In this document: piece after piece, positions 29,760 to 39,156 of the stretch
Layout of the letters: every line of letters starts with the position of its first letter
Numbering within the stretch: position 1 is the first letter of the stretch
Virus record (IMG/VR): IMGVR_UViG_3300033407_000050
Location: 1 to 40,079 of that record
DNA length: 40,079 nt
DNA from: a virus
Lineage: Duplodnaviria > Caudoviricetes
Reading direction: 5' to 3' (one strand)
Translations under genes and position numbers: made by a program
Notes under the pieces: model-generated
Told to the model about the DNA's origin: nothing
Databases searched by the model: none
The model's input: only the letters and a program-made list of their open reading frames with translations

Positions 29760-30471
29760 TGTGGCTGTGGTCCGTGCTCCATCTTTGTCCGTTTTGGGCC
29801 TTGGCGAGCCATGCGTTTATGTGGCGAGTCATTCCGCCGACGGTTTTGCGTTTCTGCGGGTTGCCGACGTTCCAGCCTGCGCAGTTCCGCAATTCGGCTC
29901 GCACGTCGATGCCTGGGTAGTAGGTTTCGAAGCCCTTGATTTGGTTTTCAGTGACCGGATACGGCTTAGCGCCCCTACCCACAGTTGGAATTTCGATGAA
30001 AACCGGGTTGTCTGGTTGCTTGGATGCTGGCTCGCCCAGCTCCGAGCTATCCTCGTCTCCGTCTCCGAAACTCGTCTCCGTCTCCGAGCGCGGATGTCCG
30101 GCGCATGACGGGCGCATGTCTGACAAATGCCCGTCAATCGTCTCGCATTCGCCCGGATTGGGAAACTTGCTATCTTTCGCCCGAGTGCGTTGGTTGAAGT
30201 TGGCGATTTCAATAAACTCGCGTCCGCGCCTGTCTTGGTAGAGTGCCAGAAGTCCGGCAGTCGTACACTCGTCGCGCCATTTGCGGACCGCCTGTAGGCG
30301 CACGTCGGCAAGTAGCGGGAATAGCGCGGCTTTGAGCAAACGCTCGTCGCCATGAAATCGGCCGTAGTCGTCGGCCTTCATGATCAGCCGGACGAAGAAT
30401 CGCTCGCCCTCAGGTGACAAGTCAGCCAAGGGAAGGGAATCGGTCCAGTCTCGTAAAATTCGTGTGGGCAT
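29725..30471 (-). CDS. Phage replication initiator (248 aa)
   Basis: ADDYGR N-terminal motif, YPGIDV..EL...W C-domain; directly upstream of the DnaC-like gene. Confidence 0.8.
   Translation of the reverse strand: MPTRILRDWTDSLPLADLSPEGERFFVRLIMKADDYGRFHGDERLLKAALFPLLADVRLQAVRKWRDECTTAGLLALYQDRRGREFIEIANFNQRTRAKDSKFPNPGECETIDGHLSDMRPSCAGHPRSETETSFGDGDEDSSELGEPASKQPDNPVFIEIPTVGRGAKPYPVTENQIKGFETYYPGIDVRAELRNCAGWNVGNPQKRKTVGGMTRHINAWLAKAQNGQRWSTDHSHNARPGNYKDAF
30052..30133. repeat. Candidate replication-origin iterons inside the initiator gene
   Basis: CTCGTCTCCGTCTCCGA x2 (30052, 30071) and four degenerate 11-mers from 30090. Confidence 0.5.
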
Positions 30472-30474
30472 ATC

Positions 30475-30636
30475 TCAGTCTCTCGAAATAAAGTAAAAGC
30501 ACGTCCCACCCCTCGACTCCTTGGTGCACGGCCAAACCTTGCACTTCCCAGCCGGCGGGCTCTTGCGGGCGCATCGCGAGGCCAGCGGGCAGTTGAGGCC
30601 CTGGCAGCGGAAGTAGGTTTCGGGGAGGGGTGTCAT
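30475..30636 (-). CDS. Small Cys-rich protein (53 aa, MTPLPETYFRCQGLNCPLASRC...)
   Basis: Hand-translated; ATGA overlap with the MTase stop. Confidence 0.6.
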   Translation of the reverse strand: MTPLPETYFRCQGLNCPLASRCARKSPPAGKCKVWPCTKESRGGTCFYFISRD

Positions 30637-31589
30637 AGAGCTAGCGCTTCCTCGCAGGCTTGGATGAATTGCGCGGCGAGTTCCGGCACGATCGCATTGC
30701 CGTAGCCCCGCAAGAGCCCCACTCTGCCGGGTACCCCATCAGCCAGCGGGAATGTTCCGGGTTCAACACGCCGCGCTTTCCCGTCGGTGCAGGGGAGTAG
30801 GTCGAGGGAATCCCAAGAGTTGCCTCGCAGTTGAGCGGGAGACTGTTGCGTCGAAACTGCGATGGGCCTGCGTTGTTCGTTGAGTCCTGCACAGTCGGCG
30901 TCGCCCAGCCTGCCAACTCCACCGTCTTGCGGCTGCTGTCGTTGTTGCCCGCCTCGCTGTTGCCGTTGCGAGCAGGGGTTCCCGCCATTGGCGTTGGCCA
31001 GCCGGCTAACTCGCTCGCTACTGCAAGGCATGAGTTGCGCCCTCCCCTCTCCCTTGTTCCGAGTCCCGGTTTCTTGGAGTCGTGTGTTGTTGGCGTAGGC
31101 CACCCAGAACAATCGCTGTCTGATATGCGGCGCGCCGACGCTCGCAGCGCACAGATCGGCGACCCCGACTGCATATCCCAGCTCTTCCACTTGAGCGCGT
31201 ACTCCGGAGAGCCATCCACGTCCAGCCTTGCTCGCAACCTGCTCTCCAAAGACGACTGCAGGCCGGCACTCGTCAATGAGATCGCGGAAGACCGGCCAAA
31301 GGTGGCGCTCGTCGGCCTCGCCCTTTCCTTTTCCCGCCACGCTGAAAGGCTGGCACGGACAAGAGCCCGACCATACCTCCCGATCCCTTGGCCACCCTGC
31401 AAGCTGGAGAGCCAGCGGCCAGCCTCCAATGCCTGCGAAGAAATGACATTGCCGGTATTCCACAAGGTCAGTTGCTCGCACGTCGGCGATGCTTCTAGTG
31501 TCAATGTCTCCATTTGGTATCAGTCCCGCGTTTATTAGTTCCTGCAGCCATGCGGCGGCTTTGGTGTCGAATTCGTTGTAGTAGTTCAT
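30633..31589 (-). CDS. C5-cytosine DNA methyltransferase, alpha-type chain (318 aa)
   Basis: FFAGIGG (I), SCPCQPFS (IV), EQV (VI), PHIRQRLF (VIII), GYGNAIVP (X); no motif IX in this frame. Confidence 0.9.
   Translation of the reverse strand: MNYYNEFDTKAAAWLQELINAGLIPNGDIDTRSIADVRATDLVEYRQCHFFAGIGGWPLALQLAGWPRDREVWSGSCPCQPFSVAGKGKGEADERHLWPVFRDLIDECRPAVVFGEQVASKAGRGWLSGVRAQVEELGYAVGVADLCAASVGAPHIRQRLFWVAYANNTRLQETGTRNKGEGRAQLMPCSSERVSRLANANGGNPCSQRQQRGGQQRQQPQDGGVGRLGDADCAGLNEQRRPIAVSTQQSPAQLRGNSWDSLDLLPCTDGKARRVEPGTFPLADGVPGRVGLLRGYGNAIVPELAAQFIQACEEALAL
30641..31513 (-). CDS. Nested alternative-frame beta-type chain of the C5 MTase (up to 290 aa)
   Basis: Stop-free over 873 nt; three W(P/A)TP repeats and motif-IX-like LNPEHSRWLMGYPAEW. 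Confidence 0.72.
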   Translation of the reverse strand: METLTLEASPTCEQLTLWNTGNVISSQALEAGRWLSSLQGGQGIGRYGRALVRASLSAWREKERARPTSATFGRSSAISLTSAGLQSSLESRLRARLDVDGSPEYALKWKSWDMQSGSPICALRASARRISDSDCSGWPTPTTHDSKKPGLGTRERGGRNSCLAVASELAGWPTPMAGTPARNGNSEAGNNDSSRKTVELAGWATPTVQDSTNNAGPSQFRRNSLPLNCEATLGIPSTYSPAPTGKRGVLNPEHSRWLMGYPAEWGSCGATAMRSCRNSPRNSSKPARKR

Positions 31590-31756
31590 GCCGCCCCAAT
31601 CTCCCGCCGATGCTCCGCAACCTGTGTGCAGCCCTCGCGATGCCCGAGATAGTAGGCCTTCGCGTCGTCGCTGCCGCGTGGATACGGGTTGGTTCCAAAC
31701 GGTTCGGCTCCGGTGTCCCATGCGTGGCAGAGGCCTTGATGGTAGGGTGCGTTCAC
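31586..31756 (-). CDS. Rmf-like small protein (56 aa)
   Basis: Hand-translated MNAPYHQG...NPYPRGSDDAKAYYLGHREG; GTGA/ATGA overlaps at both ends. Confidence 0.55.
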   Translation of the reverse strand: MNAPYHQGLCHAWDTGAEPFGTNPYPRGSDDAKAYYLGHREGCTQVAEHRREIGAA

Positions 31757-31959
31757 TTCCCCATCCCCCTAAAGCAGTCATCCAAATCCGGTTGTCTCCA
31801 CCGCAAAATAAACGGCGGCAGATTAGGCGCGAGCTGCTCGGCATGCCCCTTGTGGACCCATGCGACGCCGATCTTTTCCCATGGCGAGTTGACGAGGCTG
31901 TCGGCGCATTGGCGGTATAGGTCGCATGCGTTGTTGGCGCAGTAGGTGCGGGGTGTCAT
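31753..31959 (-). CDS. Small Cys-rich protein (68 aa)
   Basis: C-x4-C-x5-C pattern; overlap-coupled. Confidence 0.65.
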   Translation of the reverse strand: MTPRTYCANNACDLYRQCADSLVNSPWEKIGVAWVHKGHAEQLAPNLPPFILRWRQPDLDDCFRGMGK

Positions 31960-32264
31960 AGCCAGTTCACCTCCGCGTAGCCTTCGAGCTTCCGCCAGAT
32001 CGCTAAATTCAAAACCGCCTCACGCTCAGTGCGACCGTAGCAGCATTCGCCGTCATACGTCGCCTCATCCAGATCTTTGTTATTATTATGCTTCGCGTAG
32101 TAGTAGTGATCGTCGTCGCTATCTGGATACTTGCCGTGTTCCTCCGCAACCTGACTGTCTGGATAATCTTTGCGAAAATCGCCGGTCACGATCTGGTAAC
32201 GCTCCACAAACCGCAGATATGGCGAGAGCTGGACGGCTTCGGGGAATAGGTCTGGTTGTGTCAT
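31956..32264 (-). CDS. Hypothetical protein (102 aa)
   Basis: Overlap-coupled ORF. Confidence 0.7.
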   Translation of the reverse strand: MTQPDLFPEAVQLSPYLRFVERYQIVTGDFRKDYPDSQVAEEHGKYPDSDDDHYYYAKHNNNKDLDEATYDGECCYGRTEREAVLNLAIWRKLEGYAEVNWL

Positions 32265-32632
32265 TCCGCCTTCCTCCTCGCCGCCGCTACGAACCGCTCC
32301 AGCTCCCCAAGTGTCGGCTCGCAGCTCCCGAAAATAGTATAGAACAAATTCGCCAACGCGCTGCCATCGCGACCAGCCTCACGGGAGAGCTGCTTTAGCG
32401 CTCCCGCTCCCAGTCGTTGCCCGTCGCGCATCCGCTGCAGCAACTCCTCATAGAGCGGCAAATCGCGCAAGGTAGGCTCCCTTCGAAGGCGCGTTACCCG
32501 CGTCTCGATATTATCCCGGCGCGGCGTGTTGAGAGCGGCGCGGACCATGGCGGCGGATAGGCCGCACAAGCGCAGGATGGGGTTCGGCTCGCGGGCGATT
32601 TCGGCTCGTTGGGTTAGGTTTAGGTTGGTCAT
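32261..32632 (-). CDS. Hypothetical basic protein (123 aa)
   Basis: ATG at 32632 overlaps the MTase stop. Confidence 0.6.
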   Translation of the reverse strand: MTNLNLTQRAEIAREPNPILRLCGLSAAMVRAALNTPRRDNIETRVTRLRREPTLRDLPLYEELLQRMRDGQRLGAGALKQLSREAGRDGSALANLFYTIFGSCEPTLGELERFVAAARRKAE

Positions 32633-33282
32633 AGCGCTAGCACTTCTTGGGCGCATCTTCGTGCTGCTATCTCGCAGTAGCGCTCCTCGCGTTCGATGAG
32701 CGTGCATTTCTTACCGAGGTCTTTGGCGGCACGGCCTGTTGTGCCAGAGCCTGCGAAGGGGTCGAGGATGGTGGATACGTCGCCCGCGAGGCTGATGCAC
32801 CACGCGATTACATCGAGGGGCTTCTGTGTCGGGTGCTCGCGGAATTCGCCACCCTTGCGGAGCATGCCGTTCCAGAGGTGGCGTTTGATCCGTAAGGCAG
32901 ATCCAAGGTTATTCCAAGCCATTTCACCGTCTGCGAAATCACCTGTGTTTTCTTTGTCCCAAACTAGCGGACCTTTGCATGGTGGTAGACTATAGTAATT
33001 TCCACCCCAAATGATCTGCTTAACACAGACAGAGCGAATCAACTCTATCGTAGCTGGATCAATGGGGGTTTGATCCCAGTTGTATTCTCCATAGTCTCGC
33101 ACATAGGCTTTCCCTTTCGAAAAAACAGAGCCCCGACCTCTTGTTGCGTTCTTTTTGGAGCTTTCACCAATCCCATACGGCGGATCAGTCAGCAGCAAAT
33201 CGAAGCGCCCGAGCTGCGGAACGATCTCCCTGCAATCGCCGCAATACAGCGTGACCGCATCATCCTGATAATAAGGCCTCAT
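32629..33282 (-). CDS. Beta-class N6-adenine/N4-cytosine DNA methyltransferase (217 aa)
   Basis: DPPY precedes HPTQKP and DPFAGSGTT. Confidence 0.92.
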   Translation of the reverse strand: MRPYYQDDAVTLYCGDCREIVPQLGRFDLLLTDPPYGIGESSKKNATRGRGSVFSKGKAYVRDYGEYNWDQTPIDPATIELIRSVCVKQIIWGGNYYSLPPCKGPLVWDKENTGDFADGEMAWNNLGSALRIKRHLWNGMLRKGGEFREHPTQKPLDVIAWCISLAGDVSTILDPFAGSGTTGRAAKDLGKKCTLIEREERYCEIAARRCAQEVLAL

Positions 33283-33488
33283 ACTCCAATCCCTCCCTGA
33301 ATTTCCACCTTCACCGCATCCTTTATCTCCCCCCACAACTCCAGAGCGTCAGCCACCGGAGCGAAGTCCACGCCGTCATATTCGACGCTTTCGATTTCGA
33401 TCTCCTCTTCAATGGGAGGCTCGGCGTATTGGTAGGGGTGGTAGGTGGCTTGCACGTCGAGGGGGATGCCTTTTAGGTTGATTGTCAT
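33279..33488 (-). CDS. Small acidic protein (69 aa)
   Basis: Overlap-coupled ORF. Confidence 0.65.
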   Translation of the reverse strand: MTINLKGIPLDVQATYHPYQYAEPPIEEEIEIESVEYDGVDFAPVADALELWGEIKDAVKVEIQGGIGV

Positions 33489-36457: not shown

Positions 36458-38512
36458 CTAGGCGCTCAAAGTCTCCTCGGGTTGAGGCTGCATTTGCTCG
36501 GCTACCATAAACGACTGAAACCGCACGGTATCGTTGTATTCCGGCGAGCGGAAAAGCCCGTCGCCCTTGCCTGAGAGCGATTCCGCACCGTCCTCATCGA
36601 GCACGACTCGCGAGTCGATGGCCTTCGGTACACGAAAGCATACCTGAACCGGAAAGTTCGCCTTGGCGTCGCCCGTAATCACTTTGACCGATGCGCGCTG
36701 AGTCGCGGCGATGATGCGCAATCCGCAAGAGCGGCCCTTCTGGAGCAGTATCTTCAGGTTCTCCTCAAGCGATTTCTCGTAGCCTATAACTTTCCCTTCA
36801 CCGTCTCGGATCGCCAATTCCTTGCCTTTCCGTGACTGCGCTACCGCGTCGGCGAATTCATCGAAAACCACGAGAGTATTCAAAACCTGTCCACGCTCGA
36901 CGGCCGCGTTCATCTCGTTAACAAGATCGGCCATTCGACTTTCAATCCCATCGATATCATTCACCGATCCGAACTCGCGGAATTCATACTTCGGATCAAA
37001 TAGCTCGATCCGCCATCCGCCAAGCGCTCTCACGCTCTCGATGATCGAGCGGATATGGACGCTCTTGCCGCTGCCGGTCGCCCCGCAAACGAGCATGTGC
37101 GGAGTCGATGGGTTGCCCATGTCCCACGTCACCAGCTCGCCAAAGTTATCAAACCCCATTGGGATCTCCAGCGAGCCTTTTTCGATATGCTCACGGCTCC
37201 AATACAAGGGCTCGCGTTGCGATTGGTCCTTGTTCGCGTCGATGGCCACGTAGGAGCGGCCATTGTAGACCGAAAGCTTTTGGCCAATGCGGATCGATTC
37301 GAGGTTGAGCGCGTTCGCAATATCGAGCCGAAACTTGAAGATGTCGTTGATGCGACGCCCGTTCTGGAGTTCAAGTAGGTAGGTCTCACTGCTGTATCCG
37401 CTCAGGCAGTGCTCGACCTTCACGGGCAGTCCGAGCGTCATTAGGCGGGTTTCGATTCGTTGGGATGGTGTCATGTCCTCTATGGATGCGTAGCTTATGA
37501 AGCGGTTCGCTTCGGTTTTGAATTTGGCGATGATCTGCGGATCGATCGCGGAAAGGTTCGAGTCGCGAATCTTTCGCGTCCGCTTGGCTAGTAGAGCGGA
37601 CTTCTCCGCGCTGATTTCCGGGTTGATGTCCTGGATCTCCTGCGTCTGCCATGCTATCCAGAAGTTGAGCAGCTCTGCCTTTTCCTCGCCCTGAATAAAC
37701 ATGTCATTCGGGTTGGCGAGATACACCTTATCGGGATCGCGAGCGGCGTTGTAGACTTCGCGAACGCCCTCATAAAGCAGGGCTTCGTACATGCGGCGAT
37801 TCTCCAAATTCAAAGGGATCGGCACCTTGCGAATCTGCGCCATGCCCGCGTTGGCGCCGCGCGAGTTCTGAGAGGTCTTGTTTTCGAAAAAGTTGAATAT
37901 CTCTACCGGCTCGCCTAGCGCCTTTTCGATGCCTACGAGGTAGGTTACAGCCTGCCCTGAGTATTTGTAGATAACCTCGTCTTCGCTCGTGTAGCCATAG
38001 ACCGCCTTGTGATCGAGCACGGCCAACCTGCCGCCCTTGCTCCAGTAAACGAGATCGGGGACGAATACACAGGGGATGGGGATTCCGACGCCGTTAAGAG
38101 TAACGACTTCCTTGAATCGCTTATTGATAAACAGAATCTCGCCGATGTCCGCGAGGTAGGTGTCCACCTCTTCGAGAAAACTCTTGATCACAAAAGGAAG
38201 CTTGCCGGCCACGTGCTGAAATACGGCCTCGACGGTCGGCGTTGTGGCTCCGGTCTTGATGCGGTTGGCAGGCGTATTGTAAACCGCCTCCATGCCGACG
38301 CGCACCATCTCCTCCAGTGTGATCGAGCGGCCCTCTCTATGCAGCGCGAAGAAGGCTTGCAACGCCTCGTCGTAGCCGGTGCCGATCAGGGAGGATGGGG
38401 AGCTTTTATAGTCCTTGATTCCCGCGATGTAGGAGCGGCAGAAGGCGAGTTGGTTTCGCTGGTAGGTCTGCACCATCGAGTGCGACCAATGATCAATGAG
38501 GCAGTCGCTCAC
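36458..38512 (-). CDS. PD-(D/E)XK nuclease - FtsK/SpoIIIE ATPase fusion (684 aa)
   Basis: N-part: SHS..., PDLV...LDHK, Q...Y. C-part: FtsK alpha (DIANAL...IRI), PHMLVCGATGSGKS, VFDEFAD, GR..G, ATQR, DSRVVLD..GAE.L.GKGD. Confidence 0.88.
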   Translation of the reverse strand: MSDCLIDHWSHSMVQTYQRNQLAFCRSYIAGIKDYKSSPSSLIGTGYDEALQAFFALHREGRSITLEEMVRVGMEAVYNTPANRIKTGATTPTVEAVFQHVAGKLPFVIKSFLEEVDTYLADIGEILFINKRFKEVVTLNGVGIPIPCVFVPDLVYWSKGGRLAVLDHKAVYGYTSEDEVIYKYSGQAVTYLVGIEKALGEPVEIFNFFENKTSQNSRGANAGMAQIRKVPIPLNLENRRMYEALLYEGVREVYNAARDPDKVYLANPNDMFIQGEEKAELLNFWIAWQTQEIQDINPEISAEKSALLAKRTRKIRDSNLSAIDPQIIAKFKTEANRFISYASIEDMTPSQRIETRLMTLGLPVKVEHCLSGYSSETYLLELQNGRRINDIFKFRLDIANALNLESIRIGQKLSVYNGRSYVAIDANKDQSQREPLYWSREHIEKGSLEIPMGFDNFGELVTWDMGNPSTPHMLVCGATGSGKSVHIRSIIESVRALGGWRIELFDPKYEFREFGSVNDIDGIESRMADLVNEMNAAVERGQVLNTLVVFDEFADAVAQSRKGKELAIRDGEGKVIGYEKSLEENLKILLQKGRSCGLRIIAATQRASVKVITGDAKANFPVQVCFRVPKAIDSRVVLDEDGAESLSGKGDGLFRSPEYNDTVRFQSFMVAEQMQPQPEETLSA

Positions 38513-39156
38513 AGCAGGTCCTTCCCTTCGGATTCGTTGGACTGCTTCAACTCAGCAACCTTCTTTTTGGCTTCAGCGACGGATTGCTCCACTGGTTTCG
38601 CTCTCTCGACCAGCTCCTCTTCCGTGTAATCGGCCAGCTCCTCAGTGGTCCGAAAACCCTTGAGTACGTCGCCGAACTGGTCGCGCAGAAGGAACCCACG
38701 CGCCCGGAACATGAGCATGCGCTTCGGGTACTGCTTCCATGGTCCGGCCTTGTCCCAGAGCCCCGCCGTCTTGGCGTCCTTGACGGTAAACGTCTCTGTC
38801 GCGGGCTCGAAGTTGCGGCGCTTGACGGTGACCTTTACGCCCTTCTCGTCGCCCTCGCCTACGATTTCCTCCTTGTACTGCTCAAGCAGTCCGGAGGCTC
38901 GTACGACGGCAAGAGCGGCATCGCCATAAATGCCAGGGCGACCGTTGATCACCGCGATATTTTGTAGGCCCGCGAGCGGAGGGAGTCCGAGCTCCATGCC
39001 GCACTGCAGGGCGATCAGCACGTCACCCGCGTTCTCAAACCCCTTGGGTTTAAACGGGCTCTTGGCGATGTATTCGGCGAGCTTTAGGGCGTCCTCGAAT
39101 GTCTTAATTTGGATGCCGTTTGATGCACTTAGCGCTAGCTGTGTGTCTGTACTCAT
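38509..39156 (-). CDS. recT: RecT/Red-beta-like single-strand annealing protein (215 aa)
   Basis: GMELGL.P, IAVINGRP and GPWKQYPKRML..RA motifs; upstream of the nuclease. Confidence 0.8.
   Translation of the reverse strand: MSTDTQLALSASNGIQIKTFEDALKLAEYIAKSPFKPKGFENAGDVLIALQCGMELGLPPLAGLQNIAVINGRPGIYGDAALAVVRASGLLEQYKEEIVGEGDEKGVKVTVKRRNFEPATETFTVKDAKTAGLWDKAGPWKQYPKRMLMFRARGFLLRDQFGDVLKGFRTTEELADYTEEELVERAKPVEQSVAEAKKKVAELKQSNESEGKDLL

Follow-up and report, generated by a model that had tools for sequence, protein, structure and literature searches.

The window analysed here, whose 40,079 bases make up an entire virus record, carries a C5 DNA methyltransferase gene with two overlapping reading frames on one strand, both of which are open and under selection. 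The outer frame carries the catalytic body and the nested frame carries motif IX, preceded by a run of short cassettes whose types are exchangeable and have been swapped among related phages. The two frames very probably give two translated chains that assemble into a single methylase. The position of the cassettes, after the motif VIII junction and before motif IX, suggests that they are likely to act as target-recognition domains, and from that same position it may be, more tentatively, that several specificities are active in one enzyme.

Genomic setting

The record is estimated to be 98% complete and is the genome of a temperate phage, in which integrase, repressor, portal, major head, ejection and tail-spike genes were recognised. 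Small early and replication genes surround the methylase, a replication initiator (30471-29725) and a DnaC-like loader lie downstream of it, and no restriction nuclease was recognised among the neighbouring open reading frames (ORFs) that were scanned. About 1 kb upstream lies a second DNA methyltransferase gene, of the N6/N4 type (32629-33336, minus strand; PF01555, E 7.5e-18). Elsewhere on the minus strand, 36458-38512 encodes a 684-residue fusion of a PD-(D/E)XK exonuclease domain with an FtsK-like ATPase, and a RecT-like annealing gene (38509-39156) adjoins it. A search of sequencing runs for the window matched one DNA run and listed no RNA run; a contig of the matching run is identical to the window over 30000-32200, possibly comes from the same source and is not independent.

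Some 6-bp palindromes are avoided throughout the genome (window 1-40079), with 5 of 40 occurring at less than 0.3 of expectation as against none of 3,070 other 6-mers. The observed and expected counts are 0 and 10.5 for GACGTC, 1 and 9.9 for GGGCCC, 3 and 24.7 for CCGCGG, 3 and 17.2 for GTCGAC, and 2 and 9.5 for CCCGGG. This avoidance shows either restriction pressure or the loss of methylated sites and says nothing about the target of the enzyme; it fits restriction pressure and fits incomplete protection equally well. Cassette type was also compared, at 80 loci, with how strongly 36 short palindromes are depleted in the flanking DNA; not one of the 216 tests survived correction (best p 0.0014, threshold 0.00023), the power of the comparison being low.

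The outer chain

The outer, or alpha, chain runs from the ATG at 31589 to the stop at 30633 (30633..31589; 957 bases, 318 residues) on the minus strand, as do all features of both chains given below. It matches PF00145 (E 2e-16; 60.8 bits, cut-off 22), belongs to phrog_363 (3e-80) and also matches M.HhaI; against TIGR00675 it scores 40.6, under the cut-off of 100.65. The best structural match of its predicted model is again M.HhaI (10mh; Z 13.7, rmsd 3.1, 169 residues aligned), and the top 17 structural rows are all chains of the C5 methyltransferase family; a Foldseek comparison gave E 2e-8. ORF callers extend the gene upstream, to 31844; we rejected this start, as the extension overlaps other small ORFs and homologues align from ATG 31589. 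An antisense frame open for 245 codons was also rejected as a gene: antisense frames hold 272-497 stops in homologues, and no Pfam family matched the 235-residue antisense ORF over this DNA (30831-31538, plus strand).

Motifs IV (PC), VI (E) and VIII (RxR) of the class and the SAM motifs I and X are all present in alpha. Motif I (FxGxG) occupies residues 49-56 (31422..31445), motif IV with the catalytic Pro-Cys residues 76-83 (31341..31364), and motifs VI-VIII residues 112-163 (31101..31256); P78 and C79, like E116, R157 and R159, are invariant in 88 of 88 chains. The core of motif X lies at residues 294-301 (30687..30710), with G297 and N298 invariant. The predicted model is ordered over residues 1-170 and from about 260 to 318, and what separates these parts is a bridge of residues 166-255 (30825..31094) that is unconserved (mean conservation 0.18-0.33) and predicted to be disordered (pLDDT below 50 across most of residues 181-255). 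The bridge is kept open so that motif X remains in frame. The initial annotation had described a main frame lacking both a target-recognition region and motif IX, and the comparison upholds it on both points, motif IX being found only in the nested frame.

A nested frame under selection

The second same-strand frame of 290 codons that had been proposed to lie wholly inside the main one is borne out as the nested, or beta, chain, a +1 frame running from ATG 31513 to the stop at 30641 (30641..31513; 290 residues). Its translation belongs to phrog_1008 (9e-28); no Pfam or NCBIfam family matched it, and Atlas gave only unnamed viral clusters. A beta profile found no relative among solved structures, and a fold search with the beta model returned nothing above Z 4.2, the mean pLDDT of 58 making that search silent on the novelty of the fold.

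Taking the window alone, synonymous recoding of the outer protein yielded a +1 frame this long in 31 of 10,000 trials, and the longest +1 frames of 13 control genes of the window span 51-182 codons. The conservation of the frame was examined in two sets of loci. The nested protein retrieved 29; of the 591 that the outer protein retrieved, the best 80 were taken, and this second set is the unbiased test. The nested ORF stands in the +1 frame at all 80 viral loci of the outer-protein set (80-276 bits) and at all 29 viral loci of the other, so that the interruption by stops in close homologues that had been named in advance as refuting the idea did not occur. Later counts leave out one locus with an outer-frame stop (L035), duplicates and alpha chains outside 240-400 residues.

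Over the central part of 94 loci (the window included; 19,895 codons) there are 5 stops in the +1 frame against 763 in the +2 frame, and the 5 sit in two loci where the fixed counting window overran an intact nested ORF. Among 89 genes, outer codons 46-70 hold 3 +1 stops where 28.8 are expected, and outer codons 101-165 hold none where 130.7 are expected. In the codon alignment of these genes, fourfold sites of the outer frame have a third-base entropy of 1.73-1.83 bits over residues 1-100, which drops to 0.86 over residues 101-165 and 256-300. This pattern divides beta into a stop-free leader followed by two constrained parts, a helix-hairpin and the motif IX region.

The leader, residues 1-81 (31271..31513), shows little amino-acid constraint. 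Residues 82-127 (31133..31270), which overlap outer motifs VI-VII, are predicted as a helix and a beta-hairpin (pLDDT 72-87) and are marked by the low third-base entropy; it is likely that this element docks on the alpha chain. The motif IX-like sequence that had been placed in the nested frame was found there as a 16-residue segment, beta residues 250-265 (30719..30766, read from 30766 to 30719), in which W257 is invariant and nine more residues are at least 90% conserved. It aligns with motif IX of the M.EcoHK31I-type beta chain with an E value of 0.04.

An ATG precedes the conserved beta domain in 88 of 89 genes, and the position of the start codon varies from gene to gene. ATG 31513 is the best candidate in the window; its ribosome-binding site is weak (-4.0 kcal/mol against a median best of -6.5).

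Exchangeable cassettes in the nested chain

Between the hairpin and motif IX, beta carries units of the form W-x-T-P-x-x-x-D ... L-x-x-x-A-x-L-A-G with a median length of 35 residues. Cassette boundaries were set by profile, and a W-x-T-P in the beta hairpin was not counted. The window has three, the first of which begins where outer motif VIII ends. Cassette 1 (beta residues 138-171, 31001..31102; WPTP at 31102) is of a type seen only here among 774 cassettes. Cassette 2 (residues 172-202, 30908..31000; WPTP at 31000) is of the commonest type, with 66 of the 774, which stands at positions 1 to 6 elsewhere, and cassette 3 (residue 203 to about 234, 30812..30907; WATP at 30907) is of a type with 7 members. 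The initial annotation had read these units as one triplicated WPTP module; three W-x-T-P units are indeed there, as three different types that share only the junction motif rather than as a triplication.

The modularity that had been proposed holds and goes further, the units being exchangeable types. The 774 cassettes come from 209 nested chains, 89 of them from the loci and 120 being the database proteins with the highest scores, among which chains with many units are over-represented. Each chain has 1-10 cassettes and none of the 209 lacks one, and chain length grows by 36.5 residues per cassette (r 0.96 over the 209 chains). In the outer-protein set, which comprises 70 non-redundant loci, one cassette is present at 8, two at 29 and three at 33. 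As many as 677 of the 774 cassettes fall into 87 shared types, and the 209 genes display 201 architectures. Alpha chains that are 96-98% identical over residues 1-165 carry different and even wholly unshared cassette types (L042 and L098; L064 and L084), and the window shares types with enzymes that are only 58-76% identical. Some types prefer an end position. The same type occurs twice in a gene in 3 of 209 cases, where shuffling predicts 27.8 (lowest value 12 in 2,000 shuffles); this rarity could stem from deletion between identical copies rather than from selection.

Within types, synonymous and nonsynonymous codon changes number 3695 and 2583 when read in the nested frame and 430 and 6094 when read in the outer frame. 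In 375 same-type pairs the substitutions fall mostly on the nested third base (5046 against 2388 and 1710); these pairs are not independent and were selected by their identity in the nested frame, so the comparison is tilted towards that frame. The outer frame over the cassettes is only a bridge, so cassettes can be gained and lost, and whole-codon changes that add no stop to either frame are tolerated in this region. The beta model is of low confidence over the cassettes (pLDDT 47-59).

Motif order of the outer chain

The main frame had been credited with motifs I-VIII and X. These motifs are present; their order appears to be II-III-I-IV-VIII, X, a local transposition rather than the canonical succession. 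A motif II/III-like segment occupies residues 4-37 (31479..31580), at the N-terminus before motif I, and its assignment draws on the structural alignment, a gap and a profile. In the structural alignment, residue 1 of the model corresponds to residue 35 of M.HhaI. If that alignment is taken as ungapped, Glu6 sits on M.HhaI Glu40, the ligand of the SAM ribose. Alignment with the M.EcoHK31I-type alpha chain opens a gap of 36 residues between motifs I and IV, the usual place of II and III. The profile of residues 2-17 matches canonical motif II with E 0.0012 and a probability of 20%, which is modest support; in a shuffle test of motif II, one canonical segment out of five scored above every one of 200 shuffles. 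Motif III was assigned by eye.

The arrangement recurs among homologues. Motif I stands 28 residues ahead of motif IV in 77 of the 79 alpha chains in which both patterns were found, and the II/III-like segment precedes motif I in all 78 in which all three patterns were found (101 examined). Four distant loci (L026-L029) have the nested chain and its cassettes, and the three complete ones among them are canonical in motif order, so the transposition is a feature of the subfamily to which the window belongs and not of the two-frame design. At L026 the outer frame ends before a motif X, and one of the cassettes there resembles cassette 3 of the window.

Naturally permuted C5 methyltransferases of the M.BssHII and M.Alw26I type resemble the alpha chain in having a non-canonical motif order, and differ from it in being circular permutations, whereas II-III-I-IV is a local transposition. 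All 27 natural permutants in the available text of PMC5944983 are circular permutations with IX-X ahead of I-VIII; as described there, that survey could not have found the II-III-I-IV order, because only X before I was sought.

Relation to known methyltransferases

The closest precedent in layout is M.EcoHK31I (E. coli, YGGCCR), in which, according to the accessible parts of PMC2836561 and PMC3404938, a different frame within the alpha gene encodes beta, beta contributes motif IX and is required for activity, and the recognition domain is assigned to alpha. We made the comparison through a near-identical allele (locus L113; NZ_CP024886.1, WP_001328257.1), located with a primer from the supplement of PMC2836561. 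This locus has an alpha chain of 309 residues, an unannotated +1 beta chain of 176 residues that begins at alpha codon 104, and a convergent nuclease gene. In both systems beta lies wholly within alpha in the +1 frame, with motifs I-VIII and X in alpha and IX in beta, and the spans are similar, alpha codons 104-280 of 309 in the M.EcoHK31I type, while in the window the constraint extends from about codon 104 to codon 300 of 318. The alpha chains are homologous (probability 97.7). A Trp and a Gly under motif VII lie in similar register in the two beta chains, and may be a shadow of the outer frame.

The M.EcoHK31I-like layout that had been suggested for the window thus stands in frame offset, span and division of motifs, and does not extend to the place of the recognition domain or, as it appears, to the order of the alpha motifs. 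The M.EcoHK31I type has the canonical motif order, a recognition domain in alpha, a 176-residue beta without W-x-T-P cassettes and a partner nuclease gene. Its beta aligns with that of the window only at motif IX (probability 1.3%), and no sequence link was found between the cassettes and its chains. In the window, the sequence at the recognition position lies in beta as exchangeable cassettes, in a phage orphan, and a recognition domain was not found in alpha: the selection over residues 166-255 lies in the nested frame. An M.EcoHK31I-type alpha start occurs in 81 of 5,426 E. coli genomes, and a gene of this type was not found in plasmids.

M.AquI differs in that its small chain also holds motif X and its two genes are separate rather than nested. 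It is alike in having two chains, the small one holding the distal variable region and motif IX, as the text available from PMC3404938 has it.

In C5 methyltransferases, recognition lies between motifs VIII and IX (PMC5944983 and PMC3404938, in the parts available), and temperate Bacillus phages array several recognition domains in one polypeptide (from the text at hand of PMC12707154). The SPR and SPbeta MtbP type is likewise a temperate-phage orphan in which short units are arrayed between motifs VIII and IX, and such arrays are described, in the portion of the source available, as protecting against several restriction systems. SPbeta MtbP (locus L114) differs in being a single chain of canonical order whose other frames, with 41 and 61 stops, provide no nested one, and its two T-L/V units, 47 residues apart, gave no match to the cassette profiles; this was the one enzyme compared, and such domains are short and diverge fast. 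The window enzyme is therefore M.EcoHK31I-like in layout and probably Bacillus-like in logic, and fails a defining feature of each.

The two nested ORFs of Escherichia phage K1ind2 stand in GenBank as a 'C-specific methylase' and a 'Mte8-like protein'. No statement that these form one enzyme was found, and the accessible text of PMC5582158 names 'Mte8-like' once. A literature search, with subscription journals, REBASE notes and bioRxiv supplements outside its reach, found nothing on cassettes in a nested methylase chain or on the II-III-I-IV order.

Proposed mechanism and alternatives

On balance we favour a two-chain orphan C5 methylase that serves anti-restriction and uses the cassettes as target-recognition domains. 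One mRNA would give two proteins, the catalytic outer-frame chain and a partner from an internal +1 start near outer codons 26-45. Beta would supply the small domain, with the recognition region and motif IX, and would dock through the helix-hairpin and motif IX. Each cassette of about 35 residues would be an alternative target-recognition domain, as in the multispecific enzymes of Bacillus phages, and the orphan enzyme would methylate the phage DNA at several sites and so let it escape host restriction. The system may have arisen from a single-chain ancestor whose recognition region and motif IX moved to another frame through two compensating shifts, which is plausible because cassette 1 starts just where motif VIII ends.

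It is also conceivable, though unlikely, that the two-chain enzyme has one specificity, with a single cassette, such as the neighbour of motif IX, reading the DNA or the cassettes folding into one recognition surface, and the rest serving as a stock for recombination. Single-cassette genes do exist (8 of the 70 loci mentioned above), and some types prefer an end position. The commonest type, however, occurs at positions 1 to 6, and same-type cassettes are constrained in the nested frame in the pooled pairs, where spare copies should decay.

Somewhat less likely still, the methylase could be of relaxed specificity, its cassettes binding host or phage proteins, acting as decoys or being self-propagating loop inserts. 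The cassettes have no homology to known recognition domains and are predicted to be disordered, and out-of-frame selfish inserts are documented in phage methylases in the available part of PMC11855218. Inserts or accessory modules of this kind are hard to square with 209 beta chains that all have a cassette, and the cassettes are too short for a nuclease; moreover, the outer frame is without a conserved recognition region, so the enzyme would have none.

A single polypeptide made through two ribosomal frameshifts, from the outer frame up to motif VIII into +1 for the cassettes and IX and back for X, would explain why cassette 1 starts at the end of motif VIII and IX precedes X on the DNA, the normal single-chain order. 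We consider it very improbable. From about outer codon 46 onwards the nested frame is free of stops, and at codons 101-165, upstream of any such shift, it is constrained; the outer frame is open across the cassettes, and the related M.EcoHK31I layout gives two chains (available text of PMC2836561). Stop depletion from about outer codon 46 and the upstream ATGs fit independent initiation rather than frameshift entry after motif VIII.

A reading of the nested ORF as a by-product of codon bias at 59% GC, and not a gene, is refuted by the 5 against 763 stops in homologues, the frozen synonymous sites and a motif IX found only in the nested frame, even though a stop-free +1 frame under outer residues 26-165 alone has a probability of 0.06 and an antisense frame is also open for 245 codons.

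Distribution, annotation and implications

Standard gene callers had been expected to miss the nested chain, which holds only in part. The chain is often called: its profile matches 7,866 of the 7,995 called proteins that were scored as candidates, and the records of K1ind2 and Xanthomonas phage PhiXhv-18 list the two ORFs. RefSeq does omit it at the M.EcoHK31I-type locus, where the 176-residue beta ORF (L113, 2808-3338) is absent from the annotation. Two features lie under the match in 6 of the 38 annotated phage rows shown. The family spans 222 phage records and 29 plasmid or secondary-replicon records, and the nested chain is matched by 29,396 representatives (50% identity) at E 0.001 or better. 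One locus (L007, 1-2785) holds two two-frame methylase genes in tandem, with a nested ORF in each.

Neither the two-frame design nor the tandem arrangement of recognition domains is new in itself. The enzymes described here may, as we tentatively suppose, form a very large phage family of two-chain multispecific methylases, whose plug-in arrays draw on a shared pool of over 80 cassette types that each have a target of their own, and whose SAM-binding lobe is rearranged. If so, phages would possess in them a naturally recombining collection of minimal modules for recognising DNA in anti-restriction. The apparent II-III-I-IV order would add a new topology to those that occur naturally in the C5 methyltransferase class. 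Should the cassettes set specificity, thousands of phages would switch methylation targets through swaps of 100-base units, and a readable code from cassette to site, small programmable recognition modules and the prediction of phage escape from restriction would come into reach. The layout, established for a single E. coli enzyme, is widespread in phages, so that most annotations would give only half of the enzyme.
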